IMG/VR virus record: IMGVR_UViG_3300045988_144737
Origin: a virus
Strand: one strand, 5' to 3'
Length of the DNA stretch: 64,000 nucleotides
Shown here: piece by piece, positions 12,185-61,419 of the stretch
Layout of the letters: each line of letters starts with the position of its first letter
Position numbering within the stretch: position 1 is the stretch's first letter
Notes under the pieces: model-generated
Database searches by the model: none
What the model saw: the letters and a program-made list of their open reading frames with translations, nothing else
What the model was told of the DNA's origin: nothing
Translations under genes and position numbers: made by a program

Positions 12185-12330
12185 GTTTAATTCCCTATTC
12201 AACGTATCCTATTTTGCTACAAAGCTACTCTAGTTTGATATAATACTCCAAGGGCGTAAATTCCCATACAACGCATGGTACACATTAGTATTATCTTTTA
12301 AGTGACTATTCTACTAATCCATATCTACTT
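12185..12330 (-). ncRNA. Candidate omegaRNA/right-end region of TnpB element 1
   Basis: Directly 3' of tnpB on the minus strand. Hairpin CCATgcgttgtATGG, motif TTACGCCCTTGGAG (12248-12259 region) shared with the 3' region of TnpB-2 (TTACGCCTGTGGAG), terminal ..AATTAAACAAGC resembles ..GGTTCAAGC of element 2. Ends are approximate. Confidence 0.4.
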
Positions 12331-32264: not shown

Positions 32265-33599
32265 ATGATGAATTTAGATAAGTTAAGCAATGGTCAAGTT
32301 GTTAAAAACTATAAAACAATGTGCGAAATATTAGAAGAGCCTTACATGGGTGGTAAAAGTAGGGTTATACAATTAGATAAATGGAGATTGTATTTTGATT
32401 ATGGTAAAGACGGTGTAAAGTTTATAATCAATGATATTTATACACAAGAAAAAACAAATAAATTAAAACAAGCATTAGATGATGTAAAAAGAAATAAAAT
32501 AGAAAATAGAAAAAAAGAAACTCAAAGAAAAAAAGATTTAGAGAAAAAAGAGAAGGAACAAAAAAGAGAAGAGAAAAGAAAAGAAAGAGAGCGATTGGAG
32601 AGGGAAAAGTCAAAAAAGAAAAAATTGAGAGAACAAAAGAAATTAGAGAGAGAAAAATTAAAGAAAGAAAAAGAAGAACGAAGGAAGCTAAGAGAACAAA
32701 AGAAATTAGAAAGAGAAGAAAAACAAAGAGAAAAAGAAATAAAAAGAAAAGATAGAGAGCGATTGAATAAAGAAAAAGAAGAAAGAAGAAAATTAAGAGA
32801 AGAAAAAAAATTAGAAAAAGAAGAAAAGAAAAAATTAAGCAAAGAAAGAAGAGAAAACGGTCTTAGCAACTTGTTATACAACAATATATGTTGTGTCTTG
32901 AATAAATACAAAGAAGATAAAATTGTATTAACAAAAAGTAAACTATTAAAAGATGTTGGTATGATTAACGATAAGTTTGGAATGAAGTTAAGCGATAAGG
33001 AATTGGAAAAGATTAATTCAAATCAATTTAACTATAATGAATTTAATAAAATTGTATTAAGTAGAATATCATCAACCCTTGATTATGTGTTTAAAAAAAT
33101 GTCTAATGATTGTTTAATAAAAAGAGATACTTATTTATTAAGATATGATAATCACGAATTTTATGATTTATCAACGTTTAGAGAAGTTGATATGAATGAA
33201 GAATATATTATTAAAGATATTTATAATCAAGTCTTAGCAGAGTTTGAATTAGGAAAAGAAGCAGACCTTATGTATAAATCTAATAGCGTTAAAGAAAGTT
33301 TTTACGCTAAGGTCAGCGAAGAAATAAATAATAGATTTGATTGTAACGGACATTGCAAAGCGTATGATATTCAAATTTTAAATAGGGATAAGTTAAAAAA
33401 TAAAACATTAGATAAAAGAAGATTAAATAATACATTTGTTACAATATTAAAAGATACTATCAAAAACAAATATACCAGAACTAATAATAAGGGCATGATT
33501 ATGTTATCTGAAAATAATGACAAGGCTTTTATGTATGATAATTACTTTTTATCTAATCAATATGATTTATTAAATAAATTTATAAGATTAAACAACTAA
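32265..33599 (+). CDS. Hypothetical protein with a ~120-aa E/R/K charged single-helix-like spacer
   Basis: Central KKETQRKKDLEKKEKEQKREEKRKERERLEREKSKKKKLREQKKLERE... flanked by globular N and C domains. GGGGGAT RBS. Confidence 0.55.
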   Translation: MMNLDKLSNGQVVKNYKTMCEILEEPYMGGKSRVIQLDKWRLYFDYGKDGVKFIINDIYTQEKTNKLKQALDDVKRNKIENRKKETQRKKDLEKKEKEQKREEKRKERERLEREKSKKKKLREQKKLEREKLKKEKEERRKLREQKKLEREEKQREKEIKRKDRERLNKEKEERRKLREEKKLEKEEKKKLSKERRENGLSNLLYNNICCVLNKYKEDKIVLTKSKLLKDVGMINDKFGMKLSDKELEKINSNQFNYNEFNKIVLSRISSTLDYVFKKMSNDCLIKRDTYLLRYDNHEFYDLSTFREVDMNEEYIIKDIYNQVLAEFELGKEADLMYKSNSVKESFYAKVSEEINNRFDCNGHCKAYDIQILNRDKLKNKTLDKRRLNNTFVTILKDTIKNKYTRTNNKGMIMLSENNDKAFMYDNYFLSNQYDLLNKFIRLNN

Positions 33600-33964: not shown

Positions 33965-35520
33965 ATGAAATCTCCAAAGTTGTATAAAGTTTTAAATTTT
34001 AATTTAAAGGAAATTATTGAAGAAAACTTTATGATAGTTGGCGATAATCAATATATCAAAAGTCATTTAAAGTATACCAGTGATAATCAAGAGTTTAGAC
34101 AAATTAGATTAATTACGAATACAAATAATAAAATGAATAAATATATTGCTTTTGTTGAATTTGATGGAGGAACAAAGGAAGAGGATTTAAAATCAATAGT
34201 TAGAAACGGTTTTAGATTTAATGACCAAGAATTTGTATTAAGTGAACGCAGTGGTTCTATGAGCAGAACTGGGAAGTTAAGTTTTGTTGATAAAACTATC
34301 GCACAAGAATTAGATAAAAGAATATCTATGGATAATAGGATTGACAAAACAGTAGTAAGCAAATTATCAGCATACAGAGGGTTGATGTTAACTGGGTGTC
34401 ATATGTTAGAAAATTATATGCCTAAGATAATTATTACCAAAGGATTAAATAGAACTATAAAAAATGTAAAAATTAAATGTTTGCATGATAAACAAGATAC
34501 ATTCAAAAATGAAGATGGAGAAATTATCGAATATACTAAAAAAGTAATAGAGGAAGAAACTAGAGATATTGAAATAGATTGTTTTGATGGAATGGGTATA
34601 GTTCATCCTTTAGTTGTTGAAGAAATGACTAAAGAGTTAGATTTGCCAAAGGATATTAATACTATGATTGTTAGAGCGTGCTATATGAAGGGTTGTATTC
34701 ATAAGGTTGATTATACAAAGTTTTTTGTTGACCATGGTGTTGAATGGATAGAAGATATTTGGGGTGTTAAACATAGCGTTTATGAACCTATGATTATTAT
34801 GGATAAGTCTATGTATAAAGGTTTTAATTATTTCAAATATTACAACGATTATAGAGATTGGGAATATTATTTATCTAAGTTAGAAGAGTATGACCATGTA
34901 TTTGGCATTGCTAAATACAATTTTAATGAAAAAGATGAGAAAATTTATACAAAGGCAAATTATCAAATATTACAAGATTTAAACATCCCATTTTCAGATT
35001 TTGAGAAGTTGGGAGATAAAACTTTGGATTATTTTCAAAAAGTCATAGATGGCAAAGAGGAATATGTAAAAACATTCTTAGGAATTTGTGGAGATAAGTA
35101 TAAACTTAGTAGTAATTATATTAAAGCCATTGCTAAAAATCCAGAGATGCTTAAGCAAGAGGGTGTAGTAAATCATGTTATAAATTTATTAAAAGGAAAT
35201 ATAAACGATGCTAAATGTGGAAAGTTATATTTAAGAGGTTGTTTTAAGTTTGCAGTTCCTGATTTGATTTTGTTTATGGAGCATATTGGTGGACTAGAGC
35301 CAAATGGTTGTTTAGGATTTCAAGAGTTTTGGACTAGAGGTAGATGTGGTTACGAAGTTGGAAAAGAATATCTCATTACACGAAATCCACATATTTGCAG
35401 CTCAGAACACGATGTAGTTACATATGTAAGAAATGAACTAATCGAAAAGTATTTAGGGCATTTGCAAAATGTTTGTATGGTGGACTGTAATAGCCCACAC
35501 ATGGCGAGATTAAATGGGAT
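33965..35520 (+). CDS. YonO/RdRP-like single-subunit RNA polymerase, exon 1
   Basis: ..YLITRNPHICSSEHDVV..VCMVDCNSPHMARLNG parallels the RdRP/YonO RNPCLHPGD...SG segment preceding DxDGD. The ORF-track tail IGQSVPLYRNI* is intron read-through. Confidence 0.7.
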
Positions 35521-36433
35521 AGGACAATCTGTCCCACTATATAGAAATATATAGTTAAAAACACAGTGAACCTAGAAATCTAGGGTGTATGATTTACGAT
35601 AAGGAATAGTAGGAAATGACTATTAGAAATCATGCTAACAGGGGAAGCATTAATTGTAATCCTGTGTTGTATTAAATTATAATCTATATTATATTAATTT
35701 AAAGGAGGTGTTGATATGTCATTTGAAATAAAAATTAACAATGAGAAGGAATGGAAAGAAGTCAATATTAATGGATTATCATATGTTATAAGTAATTATG
35801 GTGATGTTGTTACCTTATCAAATCGCTCTCATAAAATCGTTCCACATTTGAATAAGGACGGTTATCCAATAGTAACAGTTGGAAAAAATCCTAGAGTTGG
35901 AAAACCAGTTCATTTATTGGTTGCCATGTTATTTGTAGATGGATATAAAGATGGATATGAGGTAAATCACAAAGATTTTGATAGAACTAATTACCATTAT
36001 TCTAACTTAGAGTGGGTAAGCCATAAAGATAATATTAATTACTCTTATAAAAATGGTAGACACACTAAAAGAATAAATAGTTTGTATGGAAATAATAGAA
36101 AATTAAAAAAAGAGGCTTTCTTAGATATATTAAATAAACTAGAAAATGGTATGCCTTGTTGTGATATAGCAATATATTATGGCGTATCTGTTGACGTTGT
36201 TTATAACATAAAAAGCGGAAAGACTTATAAAGAATATAGATAATATAGATATAGTTTAATGTAATCAACAGACTAGCGAAAGAGTATTGTATGTTCCTAT
36301 GGGAATATACAAGAGTAATTGAGTAGGGTACATTTGGAGTGAAACTCTCTATTTGGAAGCGCTGTGAGCCTAAGTCAGTAATGATATGGCTATGATATAG
36401 TCGGATATAAATACAATATATGTGTTTATATAG
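35521..36433 (+). mobile_element. Group I intron with HNH homing-endonuclease gene, in the RNA polymerase gene
   Basis: P1 TGGGAT (35515-20) / GTCCCA (35531-36) with U.G at the splice site. P10 GGATT (36434-38) / AATCT (35526-30). R-like AATCAACAGACTAGCG, S ATGATATAGTCGG. Intron ends in G 36433. 1556+1039 nt = 865 codons in frame. Confidence 0.75.
35716..36243 (+). CDS. HNH homing endonuclease (NUMOD4-like N-terminus plus HNH_3 plus C-terminal HTH)
   Basis: WKEV..YVISNYGDVVT, GYPIVTV, VHLLVAMLF, EVNHKDFDRTNYHYSNLEWVSHKDN. AAAGGAGGTG RBS. Confidence 0.8.
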   Translation: MSFEIKINNEKEWKEVNINGLSYVISNYGDVVTLSNRSHKIVPHLNKDGYPIVTVGKNPRVGKPVHLLVAMLFVDGYKDGYEVNHKDFDRTNYHYSNLEWVSHKDNINYSYKNGRHTKRINSLYGNNRKLKKEAFLDILNKLENGMPCCDIAIYYGVSVDVVYNIKSGKTYKEYR

Positions 36434-37472
36434 GGATTTTGACGGTGATTTATTGTTCGTTTTAGACGAACCAACCATGATTAAAGGGGTTGATATGTCG
36501 ATTCCAGTAACTATGGATATTCAAGATAAAATAACTGTAGAACCAGATTATTATAATATTGATAGCATCGAAAAATTAATAATTAATAATTCTAGTAATA
36601 GAATTGGAGAATATTCTAACTACAGCAGTTGCTATCATAACAAGATGAAAAAAACAGAAAAAACAAAAAAAATACATGATGATTATATCTCTACGCTAAG
36701 TATTTTTGTTGGCAAAGAAGTTGATGCGTCAAAAACTGGGATAAGATTTAATTTACCAAAAGCAATTGCCAAGTATGCAAGACCAATTCCATACTTTATG
36801 AAGTATCGTAGTCCATATTATGCCACCTTAAGAGATTTTAATAAATACCGAAGTAATATGAACGCAATGTGTTTTAAAATAGAGAATTGGGAAAGAAAAA
36901 TAAAATACACAAGAACTTATGATAACTTTGATTATACTATTATGATAGATGAAGGTGTTGAGGATAATCAAGATGTTATGGGTAAAATAGAAAAGATTTA
37001 TTTAGAATTTGTTAACTTATCGCAAGATTTAATTATTGAACAACGTAATTTAAATACTTATGGAGACAATAGAATAAAACAAGTAAAGGATAAAAATAAT
37101 TTAACTATTAAAGAAGCCAAGGATTTGAATAGATATGAAAAAGCAAAAGAGTATATCCAAGATAATTATTTAAGTGTTAATAAAAGGTTTGCAAAAGAGT
37201 ATCAAGTTGATTGGGCTTATTATTATGAGGATTATAAAGACAAGTTGTTAAAAATTACAAGCAACAAAAAATTGATTGTAAATTGTATTGTTAAATTATG
37301 TTATGAGAAATATCCAAAAAAAAGCAAAAAGATTTTATGGGCGGTGGTTGGAGATTGGTTACCTAATAACATAGAAGCAGTCACTCATAATATACCATAT
37401 CGAGATGATAATGGTGATATTGAGATATTAGGAGAAAGATATTCATTAAAAGAAATTAAAAGCGAGGTGTAA
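36434..37472 (+). CDS. YonO/RdRP-like single-subunit RNA polymerase, exon 2
   Basis: Begins (M)DFDGDLLFVLDE, the double-psi beta-barrel metal-binding motif (compare NADFDGD of beta-prime and DLDGDLYFV of RdRPs). Confidence 0.7.
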
Positions 37473-38323: not shown

Positions 38324-38347
38324 TGTGTGAAAAGCGAGGTAAAATCA

Positions 38348-39451
38348 ATGGAGAAAGCTTATAAATATAGGATTTATCCAAATAAAAAGCAAAAAGAAAT
38401 AATTGCTAAAACATTTGGTTCATGTAGATTTGTTTACAATAAATATTTAGCAAAACGCATTGAAATGTATGAAAATAATAAAGAAACATTTTCATATGTG
38501 CAATGTGCCAATGATATGAAACAACTTAAATCAAAATTAGAATGGTTGAAAGAAGTTGATTCCACTGCTCTCCAATCTTCTCTCAAAGACTTGGATATGG
38601 CTTATCAAAAGTTCTTCAAAGAACACTTTGGTTATCCTAAATTCAAATCTAAGAAAACACATAGATTTTCATATAAATCAAAATGTGTAAATAAAAATAT
38701 TCAGTATTGCGGAAAACATATTAAACTTCCAAAGTTAGGAATGGTAAAAACGAAAAACAAGTTGATACCACAAGGAAGAATACTCAATGCCACCGTTTCA
38801 CAAGAACCGAGTGGAAAATATTATGTGTCTATTTGTTGTATTGATGTTGATATTACTACATTAGAAAATACAAATAATTACATTGGATTAGATTTGGGAA
38901 TTAAAGAATTTTGCATCACAAGCGATGGAGAAATGATAGAAAATCCTAAGTATCTCAAGAAGTCATTAGATAAACTTGCAAAATTACAAAGAGAATTATC
39001 TCGAAAATCAAAAGGTAGTTCAAATCGTAATAAAGCAAGAATTAAGGTGGCAAGATTACAAGAGCATATTACTAATCAAAGAAAGGATTTTCTACATAAG
39101 TTGTCTACAAAAATAATTAGAAACAATGATATCGTGTGCATAGAAGACCTTCAAGTAAAGAATATGATTAAAAATCATAAACTTGCTCGTAGTATTGCGG
39201 ACGCATCATGGTCAGAATTTGTTAGACAATTGGAATATAAAGCAAATTGGTGTAATAGAAAAGTTATTAAAGTAGATAAATTCTTTGCAAGTTCTCAAAC
39301 TTGTAATGTATGTGGATATGTAAATAAGGGAACTAAAAATCTTAGTGTCAGAGAATGGGATTGTCCTTGTTGTCATACTCACCATGATAGAGATATAAAT
39401 GCTGCTATCAATATTTTTAATGAAGGATTAAGAATGTCGCAAGTAGCATAG
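38348..39451 (+). CDS. tnpB: TnpB (IS200/IS605 family RNA-guided RuvC nuclease, OrfB)
   Basis: [65 protein letters not shown] 38348 after GAGGT. Confidence 0.85.
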
Positions 39452-58419: not shown

Positions 58420-59712
58420 GTGGCTCAAGAAAAATATATTGCTAGTATTAAAGTAGCATTGGATAAGGCTAGTATTGAAGATGTTACCAAAAGACTTGAT
58501 ACAATAACTTCTCAAAAACGAGAAATGTCGTTGGCAATCAATAAGGGCGATATGGATGCCTTCTACAATTCGGTTGCAAAGGTTGAAACGGAGACAAAGA
58601 AATTACAATCGTCATTGAATATTACTGCCAAAGACACTAAGACTTTAATTAGTAGTTATAATCAAGCTAATAATTCTAGCAATAGATTAAATCAAACACT
58701 AGATAAACAAATACAAAAATTAAATAAAATTAGAGCATTACATCAAAGCGCATTTGAAGATGAAGGTATTGGCGGTCAATTCGATAAGGTGAATGAGGCT
58801 ATTAGCAAAGCCCAAGCCGATACTACAGCGGAAAATGTTTCAAATGTAAAAAAGCAAATAAGTTTATTGAGTGATGAAGTTTCTATTTATAATAATAGAG
58901 AAAAGTCGTTAGGGGAACAATTAAGGTATAGTGCCGAAAGATTTACTAAGTATGTAATTGGTGCACAAGCATTGTTTATGACTATTTCTGTCGTTAACAA
59001 AATGATTGATAATGTCAAGGAGTTAGATAGTGCATTAGTCGAAATACAAAAGGTTACAAATCTTAGCGGACAAGCATTGCAAGATTATACCGACAAAGCA
59101 TTTCAAGTAGGCGAAACGGTTGGTAGAACTGGTACTGAAGTATTAAAGGCTGCTGGAGATTTTGCTCGAAGTGGATATGCTTTAAATGAAACCTTGACAT
59201 TGGCTCAAGAAGCTGCTACAATGTTAAATGTAGCCGATGAAATGAGTGATATTTCAACTGCGTCATCAACTTTAATTTCAGTAATGAAAGCATATAATTT
59301 ACAAGCTAGTCAAGCTGGTGAAATTACTGATACGTTGAATGAGGTAAGTAATAATGCTGCGATATCTTTTGATGATTTGGCAGAAGGAATTTCCAGATCT
59401 GGTGCAGTATACGCTCAAGCTGGAACTTCTATGGGCGAATTAACGGGATTGCTTACAGGTGCAAACGAAGTATTACAAAATATTGAGAAAACTTCTACTG
59501 GTTTGGTAACAATATCTCAACGTATTAGAGGTATTGAAGAAGCAGGAGATGAGGCTACACCAGGGGTTGCCAAATTAGGCAAGGACTTGGAAGAAATAGC
59601 TGGAATTAATTTAATGGATAGCGAGGGTCAACTAAGAGATACTTATGATATTCTCAAAGACTTGGCAGAAGTCTATCCTACGTTGACTACAAATCAACGT
59701 CAATATTTGGGT
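58420..59712 (+). CDS. Tail tape-measure protein, exon 1
   Basis: GTG after AAAGGAGGGTG. Coiled-coil N-terminus then a PhageMin_Tail-like core (..ALVEIQKVTNLSGQ..GRTGTEVLKAAGDFARSGY..). Ends ..TTNQRQYLG. The ORF-track tail WLLCLAQ.. is intron read-through. Confidence 0.8.
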
Positions 59713-60087
59713 TGGCTACTATGTTTAGCCCAATTAAAACAATTTGAATTGTTGGGAAGTCCTAAAGTCTATTAAACTACAACGTGGCTTGAAAAGGCGA
59801 GCGTGAATGTGAACGAAAGTTAGAAAAAATTAATAGAATGGCATATGGTGAAATATGAATGTGGTGACATAGCCCTAAGTGCTTTATAATGGATAATCAA
59901 CAGCCAAGACTCGTATAGAGTAAGGTTTAACGACTATCTCGTAAGAGAGTAGGGTCACAAGCGATTGGTGACTCGAAGCGGATTGGCTCTCAATGAGAGT
60001 ATGATATAGTCTGTTCTCATGCGAAAGTATGAGTATTTGATATAATTCAAATAGGCTTAGTCTAGCGAACTAAGTTTCACAAAAAAG
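59713..60087 (+). mobile_element. Group I intron A in the tape-measure gene (ORF-less, 375 nt)
   Basis: P1 TTGGGT (59707-12) / GCCCAA (59728-33) with U.G. Q AATCAACAGCC, R GGTTTAACGACTATC, S ATGATATAGTCTG, P9 CTCATgcgaaagtATGAG. Ends in G 60087. Confidence 0.7.
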
Positions 60088-60102
60088 GAGCAGATAGCTG
60101 GT
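60088..60102 (+). CDS. Tail tape-measure protein, 15-nt micro-exon (EQIAG)
   Basis: GAGCAGATAGCTGGT. Preceded by G, ends in U that pairs in the P1 of intron B. Keeps the frame. Confidence 0.6.
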
Positions 60103-61419
60103 TAATCTTTAGCCAGAGTGTATAGAGATATACACCAAGTACAGACCTAATTGCTGGGAACTCTCGAAGTATTTATAAACTAAACATACTTAGAAATAAG
60201 CATGTATAAGTGATATATATAAATATATGTGACAATCAGCAGCGAAGCCCCTAAGTCGTTTAGATATGGGGTGTGTTCAACGACTATCGAAATTAATAAT
60301 AAATATAACTCTACAATGTAGAGAATAAGGCACGTAAAAGTGGATGAATAAAGTAGAGTACGCCTTTATGGTGGAAATGGTCTGCCCCTATTATATAGGG
60401 TGAAGATATAGTCTAGTCTTGCATGAGAGTGTAAGGATTTTTTATTGTTGAATTGAATAATGATATGAAGAAAAAATTAGATGAAAAAATAGAAGATGCT
60501 AAAAAGTTTATAAAAGAAAATTATAATAATAAGTACGAATTTGTAGATGCTTATTATAAAAACACTAAGAGCAAAAGAAGGAAAAATGGGCGCAATGAGT
60601 TTTTTATTAAATTAAAATGTAACACATGCAGCGAAGTGTTTGAAAGAAAATATTGCGCTTTTAAAGCTAATGATAGATGTTTTTATTGTGTTACATATAC
60701 TCAAAATTCATTTTTGCATAATCAAATCAGCTTAATGGCAAAACGATATTGTGATAATGTTGAAACAGAAAAAGACATAGGCTTTAAAGGCTTGAAAGGA
60801 AAGCCTAGTAAATATGATTTATATATTCCAAATCATTATGAATTTGGAAATGTTTTAATAGAATTTCAAAGTAGATTCCATGATAACAAAAGGGATTTTG
60901 ACATGAAGAAAAAGCAATACGCTTTAGAAAGTGGATTTAATTTCATGGAGTTTGATGAGCGAGATTACAATATTGATGATGTTAGTTTAATATTATTTGG
61001 TAAGGTTGTTGATGAAGATATTAAAAATAATTTCTTAAAAAGACCAATCGATTTTGATGAAGTTCAAAAACTTTTAGATAAAAATATGACGTATAAAGCG
61101 ATTGGAGAAAAATTAAAAATATCACCAAATATTATTCAAAACCATGTCAACCGAGGTAGGTTGTATTTAAGAAAAGATAGAATGAATTATACTCATAACA
61201 AAACACCATTGATAAGAATTGACGCCCAAGGGAATATAACCGAGGTCGACAGCGCTTGGGGGTATTTTAAATCAACAGGTGACAAAATACCCAGACCAAA
61301 ACAAGGAAGTATGATTTTTAGTCACGGTTATTTTTGGGTAAGAAAAAATGACTATATTAATAACAATTACAAAGAACACAGGAGATTTAAAAAAATTCAA
61401 CAATAAATAAATTAAAACG
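60103..61419 (+). mobile_element. Group I intron B in the tape-measure gene, with homing-endonuclease gene
   Basis: P1 CTGGT (60098-102) / GCCAG (60112-16). P2 GTGTATA/TATACAC. P AATTGCTGGGAAC, Q AATCAGCAGCG, R GTGTTCAACGACTATC, S GAAGATATAGTCTAG. Ends in G 61419. Confidence 0.7.
60465..61406 (+). CDS. Homing endonuclease: zinc ribbon plus DUF559/Vsr-like PD-(D/E)XK core plus C-terminal HTH
   Basis: CNTCS..CFYC; KYDLYIPNHYEFGNVLIEFQSRFH; MTYKAIGEKLKISPNIIQNHVNRG. ATG 60465 is preferred over the TTG at 60453. Confidence 0.6.
   Translation: MKKKLDEKIEDAKKFIKENYNNKYEFVDAYYKNTKSKRRKNGRNEFFIKLKCNTCSEVFERKYCAFKANDRCFYCVTYTQNSFLHNQISLMAKRYCDNVETEKDIGFKGLKGKPSKYDLYIPNHYEFGNVLIEFQSRFHDNKRDFDMKKKQYALESGFNFMEFDERDYNIDDVSLILFGKVVDEDIKNNFLKRPIDFDEVQKLLDKNMTYKAIGEKLKISPNIIQNHVNRGRLYLRKDRMNYTHNKTPLIRIDAQGNITEVDSAWGYFKSTGDKIPRPKQGSMIFSHGYFWVRKNDYINNNYKEHRRFKKIQQ

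Follow-up and report, generated by a model that had tools for sequence, protein, structure and literature searches.

A probable mobile group I intron one base upstream of the metal-binding motif of a YonO-type RNA polymerase gene in a Thomasclavelia phage

Introduction

Three open reading frames (ORFs) that follow one another on the plus strand of a viral genome raise the question of whether they are separate genes or the parts of a single gene interrupted by a mobile element. They lie at positions 33965-37472 of a 64,000-nucleotide stretch of viral DNA, IMG/VR record IMGVR_UViG_3300045988_144737, which as a whole is referred to here as the window. A reading of this DNA made from its letters alone (the sequence-only reading) had proposed that the two outer ORFs encode one YonO-like single-subunit RNA polymerase (RNAP) and that a group I intron carrying an HNH endonuclease gene separates the catalytic DFDGD motif from the rest of the enzyme. 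In a computational follow-up, we conclude with a probability of about 0.88 that 33965-37472 is a single gene of a Thomasclavelia phage, which encodes a YonO-type single-subunit DNA-dependent RNAP with two double-psi beta-barrels and is split by a 913-nt mobile group I intron.

YonO itself has been shown experimentally to be a DNA-dependent RNAP, which transcribes the late genes of phage SPbeta and requires its Asp triad (PMC5467207). Group I introns that carry an HNH nickase gene and sit at active-site codons of essential phage genes are of a known kind, and the rationale for this placement has been reviewed (PMC12908238).

Results

Gene structure and position of the junction

The plus-strand ORFs of the region, 33965..35554, 35716..36243, and 36420..37472, encode 529, 175, and 350 amino acids (aa), respectively. 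The two outer ORFs match consecutive parts of the family phrog_8308 (847 positions), namely 120-537 and then 549-845. In a megablast comparison of 33965-37472 with GenBank phages, the Thomasclavelia phages TR-TP1 and TR-TP2 each gave a match in two pieces, which covers 74% of the query at 97.3% identity, and the matching gene is annotated in these phages as one coding sequence (CDS) of 2595 nt, 'RNA-dependent RNA polymerase'. Joining 33965-35520 to 36434-37472 also gives 2595 nt, that is, 864 codons plus a stop codon, and the joined exons align with the TR-TP1 CDS without gaps at 97.1% identity. Because an uninterrupted 2595-nt allele exists at this level of identity, the insert length of 913 nt is fixed by comparison and not by assumption; removal of 35521-36433 leaves a gene equal in length and frame to the TR-TP1 allele. 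Further uninterrupted alleles, 98.3-98.5% identical, were found at the IMG/VR loci L010 and L012. The collinearity with phrog_8308 and the uninterrupted allele of TR-TP1 and TR-TP2 bear out the earlier proposal that the two outer ORFs are one gene, as well as the exact restoration of the frame that had been claimed for the joined exons.

Among the registers that fit an insert of this length, 35520/36434 is the only one in which T is the final exon base and G the final base of the insert. The predicted spliced junction reads ..AAATGGGAT / GGATTTTGAC.., and the joined translation runs ..MARLNG-M-DFDGDLLFVLDE, with ..MARLNG-M-DFDGD.. at the catalytic site where the TR-TP1 counterpart has ..MARLNG-C-DFDGD... 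At the nucleotide level, the site is AGATTAAATGGATGCGATTTTGACGGAGAT in TR-TP1 and ..AATGGGATGGATTTT.. in the spliced window, and intron-less alleles have ..AATGGATGCGATTTTGAC... The sequence-only reading had placed the intron two codons upstream of the metal-binding motif. This has to be corrected, since the junction falls inside the codon that precedes the first Asp (AT/G GAT) and thus one base upstream of DFDGD. Its coordinates and residues all check out, and the features on which it had based the splice sites, i.e. a P1 helix with U35520.G35531, P10, and the terminal G36433, can be read directly from the sequence. The first five bases of exon 2, GGATT, are the exon strand of P10; further on, this exon holds the metal-binding DxDGD and the motif G612-K613..D616..K619.G621.

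Independent contigs of up to 105 kb from NCBI and Logan have the same arrangement of 529 + 175 + 350 aa, which shows that it is not an assembly artefact. One protein cluster at 90% identity contains 864-aa proteins along with 529/520-aa and 350/339-aa pieces from many contigs; therefore, both intron states circulate.

The polymerase encoded by the joined exons

The ORF of exon 2 matches the Pfam family PF05183 (RdRP) at 37.9 bits, compared to a cut-off of 23.8 (E 1.2e-9). With the spliced protein, 335 homologs were found at E ≤1e-3; among the 120 matches listed, most are uninterrupted proteins of ~820-877 aa, and all 120 carry PF05183. An alignment of 36 sequences showed R473-N-P-H476, S480-E-H482, G518, D520, D522, G523, and D524 to be invariant, as well as G612, K613, D616, K619, and G621 of the downstream motif, while position 519 varies (A 25, C 7, M 3, S 1). 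Profile comparison with hhalign placed the protein in the same family as YonO of the SPbeta-type phages (YonO of phi3Ts: probability 99.8%, E 6e-28, 495 columns). In this alignment the catalytic triads coincide, with DFDGD on DNDGD and RNPH on RSPH, although identity to YonO is only ~25%.

The AlphaFold2 model of the spliced protein has a mean pLDDT of 89.2 and a pTM of 0.85. Searched against the PDB with Foldseek, it retrieved maize and Arabidopsis RDR2 and QDE-1 of Neurospora and Thielavia (E 6e-19 to 1e-15, TM 0.48-0.55, ~900 columns), followed by the virion RNAP of the crAss-like phage phi14:2 (E 1e-3) and last, weakly, by the largest subunits of multisubunit RNAPs. Among viral models, the best matches are phage entries named 'RNA-dependent RNA polymerase'; another match, A7XX94 of Thermus phage P23-45, is annotated as uncharacterized, and we take it to be the RNAP of that phage. 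By sequence alone, a single-sequence phmmer search of the PDB with the spliced protein yielded nothing relevant, and a profile search reached QDE-1 at E ~0.4, with the DxDGD segments nonetheless aligned (DYDGD in QDE-1). The likeness to QDE-1 and RDR2 thus consists of a match over the full-length fold (E ~1e-18, TM ~0.5), the common PF05183 domain, and the alignment of DxDGD with DYDGD, at only 12-15% identity.

These results support the assignment of the spliced 864-aa protein to the two-barrel polymerases of the YonO and eukaryotic RdRP type, as the sequence-only reading had suggested: PF05183, the hhalign match to YonO, the invariant RNPH and DxDGD residues, and the structural matches to RDR2 and QDE-1 all agree. 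The HHpred/Foldseek-type comparison of the 864-aa protein led to YonO by profile and to RDR2 and QDE-1 by fold. By analogy with YonO, and different from QDE-1 and RDR2, the phage enzyme would be expected to copy DNA and not RNA; its biological role, too, is inferred from YonO.

Identity of the insert

A blastn search with the intron matched 91-119 phage records, and at every locus that we opened the match starts right after the first half of a split essential gene. The split hosts of these related introns are Pol III alpha (Enterocloster phage CB457P2), nrdD (Enterococcus phage EFP01 and Clostridium phage CS01), DNA polymerase (Lactobacillus phage Semele, Staphylococcus phage Remus, and gene 31 of Bacillus phage SPO1), and yonO (phi3Ts). 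SPO1 gene 31, which was matched by the 5' half of the intron at E 1e-7, is annotated 'contains intron' and is accompanied by the homing endonuclease gp31.2. Its intron is the classic self-splicing I-HmuI intron, the splicing of which has been re-confirmed (PMC11878797).

For an independent scan, a covariance model (R1) was built from the 5' halves of seven related phage introns including that of SPO1, with the window excluded, and was run without filters on the two strands of the whole 64 kb. The single significant match lies at 35556-35671 (+) and spans the full model (114.6 bits, E 6.8e-22); the next best match had an E of 0.5. Base pairing was analyzed in nine introns. A plain MAFFT alignment of ORF-deleted introns (A2) misaligned the 3' halves that lack P7.1 and was replaced by a gapless block alignment (A3), for which the helix strands were cut at fixed offsets from conserved motifs. 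Across 46 pairs in 8 helices, 97.8% of the 414 cells are standard pairs, and 27 of the 46 pairs have changed on both sides. None of 500 shuffles reached any of the five covariation measures. When the 3' partners were shifted by one to three columns, pairing fell to 34-40%, and the covariation score, 0.69 in register, to ~0.1.

The helices that covary across the nine introns are P3, P6, P7.2, P8, and the second of two extra hairpins between P3 and P4, both of which are modelled in R1 (Table 1). The P3 strands comprise nine different sequences, every one of them paired, and 11 of 12 pairs of the second extra hairpin have changed on both sides. P4 is invariant and hence uninformative on covariation, and P7 shows a single compensatory change (GACCA/TGGTC in phi3Ts), with 5 of 6 pairs kept in the nine introns and an invariant guanosine-binding G-C pair (columns 83-136). 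An unconstrained minimum free energy (MFE) fold of the ORF-less intron independently recovered all helices except the pseudoknotted P7. Group I introns share the consensus elements P, Q, R, and S, and these are recognisable here as ..ACAGGGGAA, AATCCTGTG, ACAGACTA, and GATATAGTC, with the P/Q pair also as ACAGGGGAA / AATCCTGT. The internal guides of the related introns match their own, different exons. With P7.1 and P7.2, the intron may be read as IA-like.

Overall, the proposal made from the sequence, that a group I intron forms the insert, is supported by the homology to the SPO1 intron, the R1 match, and the covarying, pseudoknotted core, and the intron can be placed in the SPO1 / I-HmuI type.

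Table 1 Predicted parts of the interrupted polymerase gene and its intron (window coordinates)
Feature	Position	Strand	Remarks
Exon 1, YonO-like RNAP gene	33965..35520	+	Codons 1-518 and first 2 nt of codon 519; RNPH 473-476, SEH 480-482
Group I intron, SPO1 / I-HmuI type	35521..36433	+	913 nt; absent from TR-TP1, L010, and L012 alleles (97-98% identical)
P1	TGGGAT 35515-35520 / GTCCCA 35531-35536	+	U35520.G35531 at 5' splice site; recovered by unconstrained MFE fold
P10	AATCT 35526-35530 / GGATT 36434-36438	+	Intron strand directly 5' of P1 guide
P2 hairpin	35537..35554	+	CTATATA, loop GAAA, TATATAG; from sequence and MFE fold
P3	CACAGT 35562-35567 / GCTGTG 36361-36366	+	Six pairs, 4 changed on both sides; 100% paired in nine introns
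First extra hairpin between P3 and P4	CCTAG/CTAGG 35571-35584	+	Family-specific
Second extra hairpin	35589-35595/35627-33 (outer), 35606-10/35619-23 (inner)	+	Invariant loop AGGAAATG; family-specific
P4, with short P5	ACAGG 35638-42 / CCTGT 35661-65	+	Correspond to P and Q elements; unique in window
P6	GTT 35666-68 / 36263-65	+	Three pairs, two changed on both sides
P6a long stem	35672-89 / 36243-59	+	MFE fold of ORF-less intron; loop holds Shine-Dalgarno sequence and whole HNH gene
Shine-Dalgarno sequence of HNH gene	35701-35708	+	AAAGGAGG
I-HmuI-like HNH homing endonuclease gene	35716..36243	+	175 aa; in P6a loop
P7	GACTA 36271-75 (R) / TAGTC 36398-402 (S)	+	Guanosine-binding helix; pseudoknot with P3
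P7.1	36287-97 / 36302-12	+	MFE fold
P7.2	36335-39 / 36347-51	+	Loop TGAAACT; 4 of 5 pairs changed on both sides
P8 hairpin	36367-70 / 36388-91	+	4 of 4 pairs changed on both sides
P9 hairpin	ATATAAA 36405-11 / TTTATAT 36425-31	+	Followed by A, then terminal G 36433
Exon 2	36434..37472	+	Third base of codon 519, then D520 F D G D524 to stop

The endonuclease and traces of homing

The intron carries a complete HNH gene, as had been stated. The full-length ORF matches HNH_3 (30.2 compared to a cut-off of 24.8) and NUMOD4 (25.3 compared to 23.4) in Pfam, phrog_59 at 2e-35, and, over residues 12-114, the structure of I-HmuI (1U3E, E 2.9e-12). The HNH protein is a predicted site-specific nickase of intron-less alleles, for which the presence or absence of the intron among alleles of more than 97% identity and the clustering of exon differences at the junction are indirect evidence. 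On a Logan contig (SRR15373093, L092, 2912-4665), the arrangement is otherwise identical, except that the pieces called are of 73 and 105 aa for the HNH gene and of 85 and 204 aa for exon 2; this pattern may reflect decay of the endonuclease plus a further lesion or insert in exon 2.

The site reads AAT GGA TGY GAT in all intron-less relatives and AAT GGG AT/G GAT in the intron-plus allele, and it is the four consecutive differences at the junction that create the P1 and P10 pairings. Differences from TR-TP1 are clustered here: 16 of 75 lie within 50 nt on either side of the junction (binomial p = 2e-8). The same clustering was found in comparison with L010 (9 of 44 differences) and L012 (8 of 39). 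It would be the expected trace of a co-conversion of flanking exon sequence during homing from a more distant donor. Met 519 is also present in uninterrupted homologs that are 55% identical.

Counter-evidence and alternative explanations

Several observations weigh against our interpretation. The A3 anchors were chosen by hand and include one manual two-base shift (Remus P7.2), so that this alignment leans towards the structure. The window's intron deviates from its family at two places, with G-A as the sixth pair of P7 and A instead of C immediately before this helix. The exact exon-intron junction has no match in IMG/VR or in the GTDB species genomes, and a 44-nt stretch of the intron core has no exact match in IMG/VR; the allele was instead located by exact protein look-up in NCBI and Logan contigs. 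Splicing, nicking, and polymerase activity are predictions from sequence. A sigma-70 scan around the gene found 68 promoter-like matches compared to a shuffle expectation of 68.3 and is thus uninformative in this DNA of 29% G+C, which leaves the 'sigma-A-type early promoters' of the sequence-only reading unsupported; a promoter motif for the phage polymerase was not identified either. Finally, Rfam gave no group I match at gathering score in the window and none in 35300-36700 at E up to 10 (RF00028). We gave this last negative no weight, because the same scan was also blank on the related introns of four other phages (in split nrdD, DNA polymerase, and Pol III alpha) and because a 2025 survey documents the same weakness of the model with phage introns that have a nuclease loop inside the core (PMC11878797).

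The alternative that survives best, though we regard it as improbable, is that the intron no longer splices and the polymerase gene is a pseudogene, in which case the phage lineage would be polymerase-less or dependent on a helper. The broken P7 pair and the deviating conserved base beside P7 would fit such a state, and the HNH gene and exon 2 of contig L092, each called as two shorter ORFs, are consistent with decay of the element in some copies. However, the remaining core helices and all family-invariant bases are intact in the window, the HNH ORF has its full length, and the same allele is found on many contigs. In addition, the exons differ from those of TR-TP1 by 58 synonymous codon differences, compared to 13 non-synonymous ones that are mostly conservative, a ratio that shows purifying selection on the polymerase gene, and none of the invariant catalytic residues has been lost.

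Even less probable is that a free-standing HNH gene was inserted and that the 529-aa and 350-aa halves are translated separately and assemble without any splicing. The nrdA gene of Aeromonas phage Aeh1, split by mobE, is reportedly a parallel. In favour of this, the ORF 36420..37472 has an ATG as its start codon, which precedes the proposed 3' splice site by 14 nt, and split subunits are tolerated in multisubunit phage RNAPs (PMC7598289). However, a Shine-Dalgarno sequence, of which the HNH gene has a strong one (AAAGGAGG), is missing before this ATG, and this speaks against the second half being translated on its own. The 385 nt around the HNH gene are no mere spacer but a conserved, covarying ribozyme core, with the U.G pair, the terminal G, and P10 placed such that removal restores the frame to the base. 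Moreover, the break would fall one residue before the metal-binding triad, within a beta-barrel. That the insert is instead an intein or a group II intron is already refuted by the sequence: it does interrupt a catalytic motif, as inteins favour, and nothing else speaks for it, but a stop codon lies 11 codons past the junction, 913 nt is not a multiple of 3, and the SPO1-type group I core comes with neither a reverse transcriptase gene nor a group II match in a search with all Rfam families. A spliced group I intron is the preferred explanation for the arrangement in the window.

Introns in other YonO-type genes

To place the window's intron in its family, we surveyed the 80 best of 391 IMG/VR loci that encode relatives of the polymerase, and mapped breaks by tblastn. 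Junctions near DxDGD were solved by demanding a T before the insert, a G at its end, and restoration of N-G-x-D-x-D-G-D, which left one unique solution per locus. An intron inside the 15-nt DxDGD segment was found in 24 of the 80 loci, directly after D520 in 17 and after D522 in 7. The window's position, phase 2 of codon 519, occurs in 0 of the 80 and lies four bases upstream of the after-D520 group, so that there are at least three insertion points near DxDGD. At a second site, residues ~612-618 in the invariant GK..D..K.G motif, 25 of the 80 loci carry an insert, and several genes have inserts at both sites. The introns that we inspected at the DxDGD positions resemble group I introns and have guides that match the exons around them, but their sequences have diverged from that of the window; several encode HNH proteins of the I-HmuI type. 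The shortest introns among the IMG/VR loci L051-L089 have ~250 nt and no ORF, and the longest, which carry an HNH gene, have ~960 nt.

The yonO genes of phi3T, SPR, SPbetaL3-L7, Goe11, and Goe14 are interrupted at the second site (..NNFTID / ..AKT..), and that of SPBc2 is uninterrupted. The yonO intron of phi3Ts (L007), at 1967-2340, is a related group I intron; there is no ORF in that of phi3T. In Goe11, Goe14, and SPbetaL4, where the halves of the gene are annotated yonO_1 and yonO_2, it is ~890 nt longer, and in the BUCT083 record a GIY-YIG nuclease is annotated between the yonO halves.

According to the sequence-only reading, an intron at this place was not a described configuration for the family. 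This holds for the literature that we searched, in which we found no introns described in yonO-type genes; coverage was incomplete, so this is absence of evidence only. The YonO paper (PMC5467207), a review of SPbeta, and a preprint on SPbeta relatives do not mention an intron in yonO. The statement does not hold for the sequence databases, in which DxDGD introns are common (24/80) and introns of the phi3T type lie ~100 aa downstream. A catalytic-site intron in YonO-type genes is thus common in sequence data, and only the exact base position is particular to the allele in the window.

Neighbourhood and further observations in the window

Downstream of the polymerase gene lie a small ORF, an HU-like gene, and a block of holin, endolysin, and structural genes that begins at ~41.3 kb. 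In phi3Ts, yonO is likewise followed by an HU-like gene and located upstream of late genes. Based on the similarity to YonO and on this gene order, a switch from host to phage polymerase, as suggested by the sequence-only reading, is plausible.

Between the small ORF and the HU-like gene lies a TnpB / IS605 OrfB gene (38327-39451, +), which matches OrfB_IS605, Cas12f1-like_TNB, and HTH_OrfB_IS605, as well as phrog_506 at 8e-137. It is absent from this place in TR-TP1 and in Logan contig L091 and present in NCBI contig L090. Because its presence varies among relatives, we consider it a second, independent mobile element beside the polymerase gene. Two genes upstream of the polymerase, the ORF 32265-33599 (+) encodes a 444-aa protein with a K/E/R-rich repeat run of 130 residues (..KKEKEQKREEKRKERERLEREKSKKKKLREQKKLEREKLKKEKEERRKLREQ..), the only family match of which is to phrog_36702, at the N terminus; TR-TP1 has a shorter gene there, annotated 'Histidine kinase'.

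Two further group-I-like cores, in tandem and without an ORF, are located at 59776-60452 (+), between the ORFs 58420..59775 and 60453..61406. Their R/S-type elements are AACGACTAT at 59930 with GATATAGTC at 60003 and AACGACTATCGAAA at 60279 with GATATAGTC at 60405; GATATAGTC occurs three times in the window compared to 0.35 expected occurrences. The cores appear to interrupt the tape-measure gene, as the upstream ORF matches PhageMin_Tail at E 1e-27. The corresponding region of TR-TP1 and TR-TP2 bears the annotations 'tail length tape measure protein' and 'HNH endonuclease'; with an HNH endonuclease annotated there, the tape-measure gene is intron-bearing in these phages, too, with different content. 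Since the 5'-half model R1 has no match at the tandem cores, they belong to another intron lineage. The sole Rfam match in the window at gathering score is a RAGATH-18 RNA (RF03064) at 12191-12254 (-), with 70.8 bits and E 3.6e-12.

Discussion

The results outline how the interrupted gene could be expressed and how its intron could spread. After transcription, the intron would fold and bind a guanosine in P7. Cleavage after U35520, followed by joining of that end to G36434, would recreate codon 519 (AT+G, Met) and thereby yield an mRNA that encodes all 864 aa of the polymerase, with the NG-M-DFDGD metal site intact. In relatives that infect the same cell, for example TR-TP1 and TR-TP2, the allele without the intron (..AATGGATGCGATTTTGAC..) would be nicked by the HNH protein. 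If the nick were then repaired with the intron-plus allele as template, the intron would spread along with a short stretch of neighbouring exon, and the cluster of differences at the junction may be the trace of such an event. The polymerase, in turn, would transcribe the block of lysis and structural genes that starts just downstream, by analogy with YonO of SPbeta.

The closest counterpart of the intron is that of SPO1 gene 31 with I-HmuI, along with its relatives in SP82, Bastille, Twort-like phages, and Enterococcus and Clostridium phages. The ribozyme core is homologous from end to end, and the blocks common to this group and the window are GTGAACCTA..TAGGGTGT, AGGAAATG, GCTAACAGGG, AATCCTGTG, ACGACTA, GAGTAGAGTAC, GAAACT, GGAAGCGC, and GATATAGTC. 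The covarying helices, the I-HmuI-like endonuclease, and the insertion into a conserved motif of an essential polymerase gene are shared as well. In contrast to the SPO1 group, the split gene in the window encodes an RNA polymerase and not a DNA polymerase or a ribonucleotide reductase, the HNH gene is located in the P6a loop and not, as in SPO1, in the P8 loop, and the host of the phage is Thomasclavelia (Erysipelotrichales).

With respect to the split gene, the nearest parallel comes from PhiPA3, the virion of which contains a multisubunit RNAP. A gene for a beta subunit of this enzyme is interrupted, immediately behind the codons for two conserved aspartates, by a group I intron that encodes the HNH protein gp210 (Birkholz et al. 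2024, PMC11620839). This protein nicks the intron-less gene of PhiKZ and gives PhiPA3 a competitive advantage (PMC11620839). The two systems have in common a group I intron with a gene for a nicking-type HNH protein, a phage RNAP of the two-barrel superfamily that is split at conserved aspartates, and close intron-less relatives as possible targets. They differ in that the RNAP of PhiPA3 is multisubunit and interrupted in a beta-like barrel, whereas that of the window is a single chain of the YonO type, interrupted at the beta-prime-like DxDGD triad. Competition was shown for PhiPA3, while for the window phage we infer it by analogy. In phi3T, it is yonO itself that is split by a related group I intron; this intron sits ~100 aa further on, at ID/xxAKT instead of DxDGD, and is without an ORF.

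A more far-reaching interpretation, which we consider possible but rather doubtful, is that mobile introns have made the catalytic codons of YonO-type genes their battleground. Within 11 nt of the DxDGD segment there are three or more group I sites, and a fourth hotspot lies at GK..D..K.G; I-HmuI-type nickases might be the weapons that gut phages, alike except for their introns, use against each other during co-infection. If so, the window phage and TR-TP1/TR-TP2 would be one competing pair, as are PhiPA3 and PhiKZ. Since the late-gene polymerase would be made only after splicing, the intron could, in addition, help to time the change from host to phage transcription.

To a specialist, the mechanism itself is unsurprising. 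What is useful is the concentration of introns on two motifs, the unannotated introns in the yonO genes of Bacillus phages, and the availability of a cultured intron-less partner. Single-subunit RNAPs of the YonO type join the phage genes that host mobile group I introns, a list that so far consists mostly of genes for DNA metabolism. The introns are frequent in the YonO family, and their concentration on two catalytic motifs is the placement expected if imprecise deletion is impossible. Many fragments of 'RNA-dependent RNA polymerase' in gut phages (~520-620 and 250-350 aa), as well as the yonO_1/yonO_2 pairs of Bacillus, are probably halves of one spliced gene. Finally, TR-TP1 and TR-TP2, which were cultured on Thomasclavelia ramosa YY17, and the 97%-identical intron-plus alleles provide a natural pair for studies, in a gut Firmicute, of homing, marker exclusion, and interference competition.

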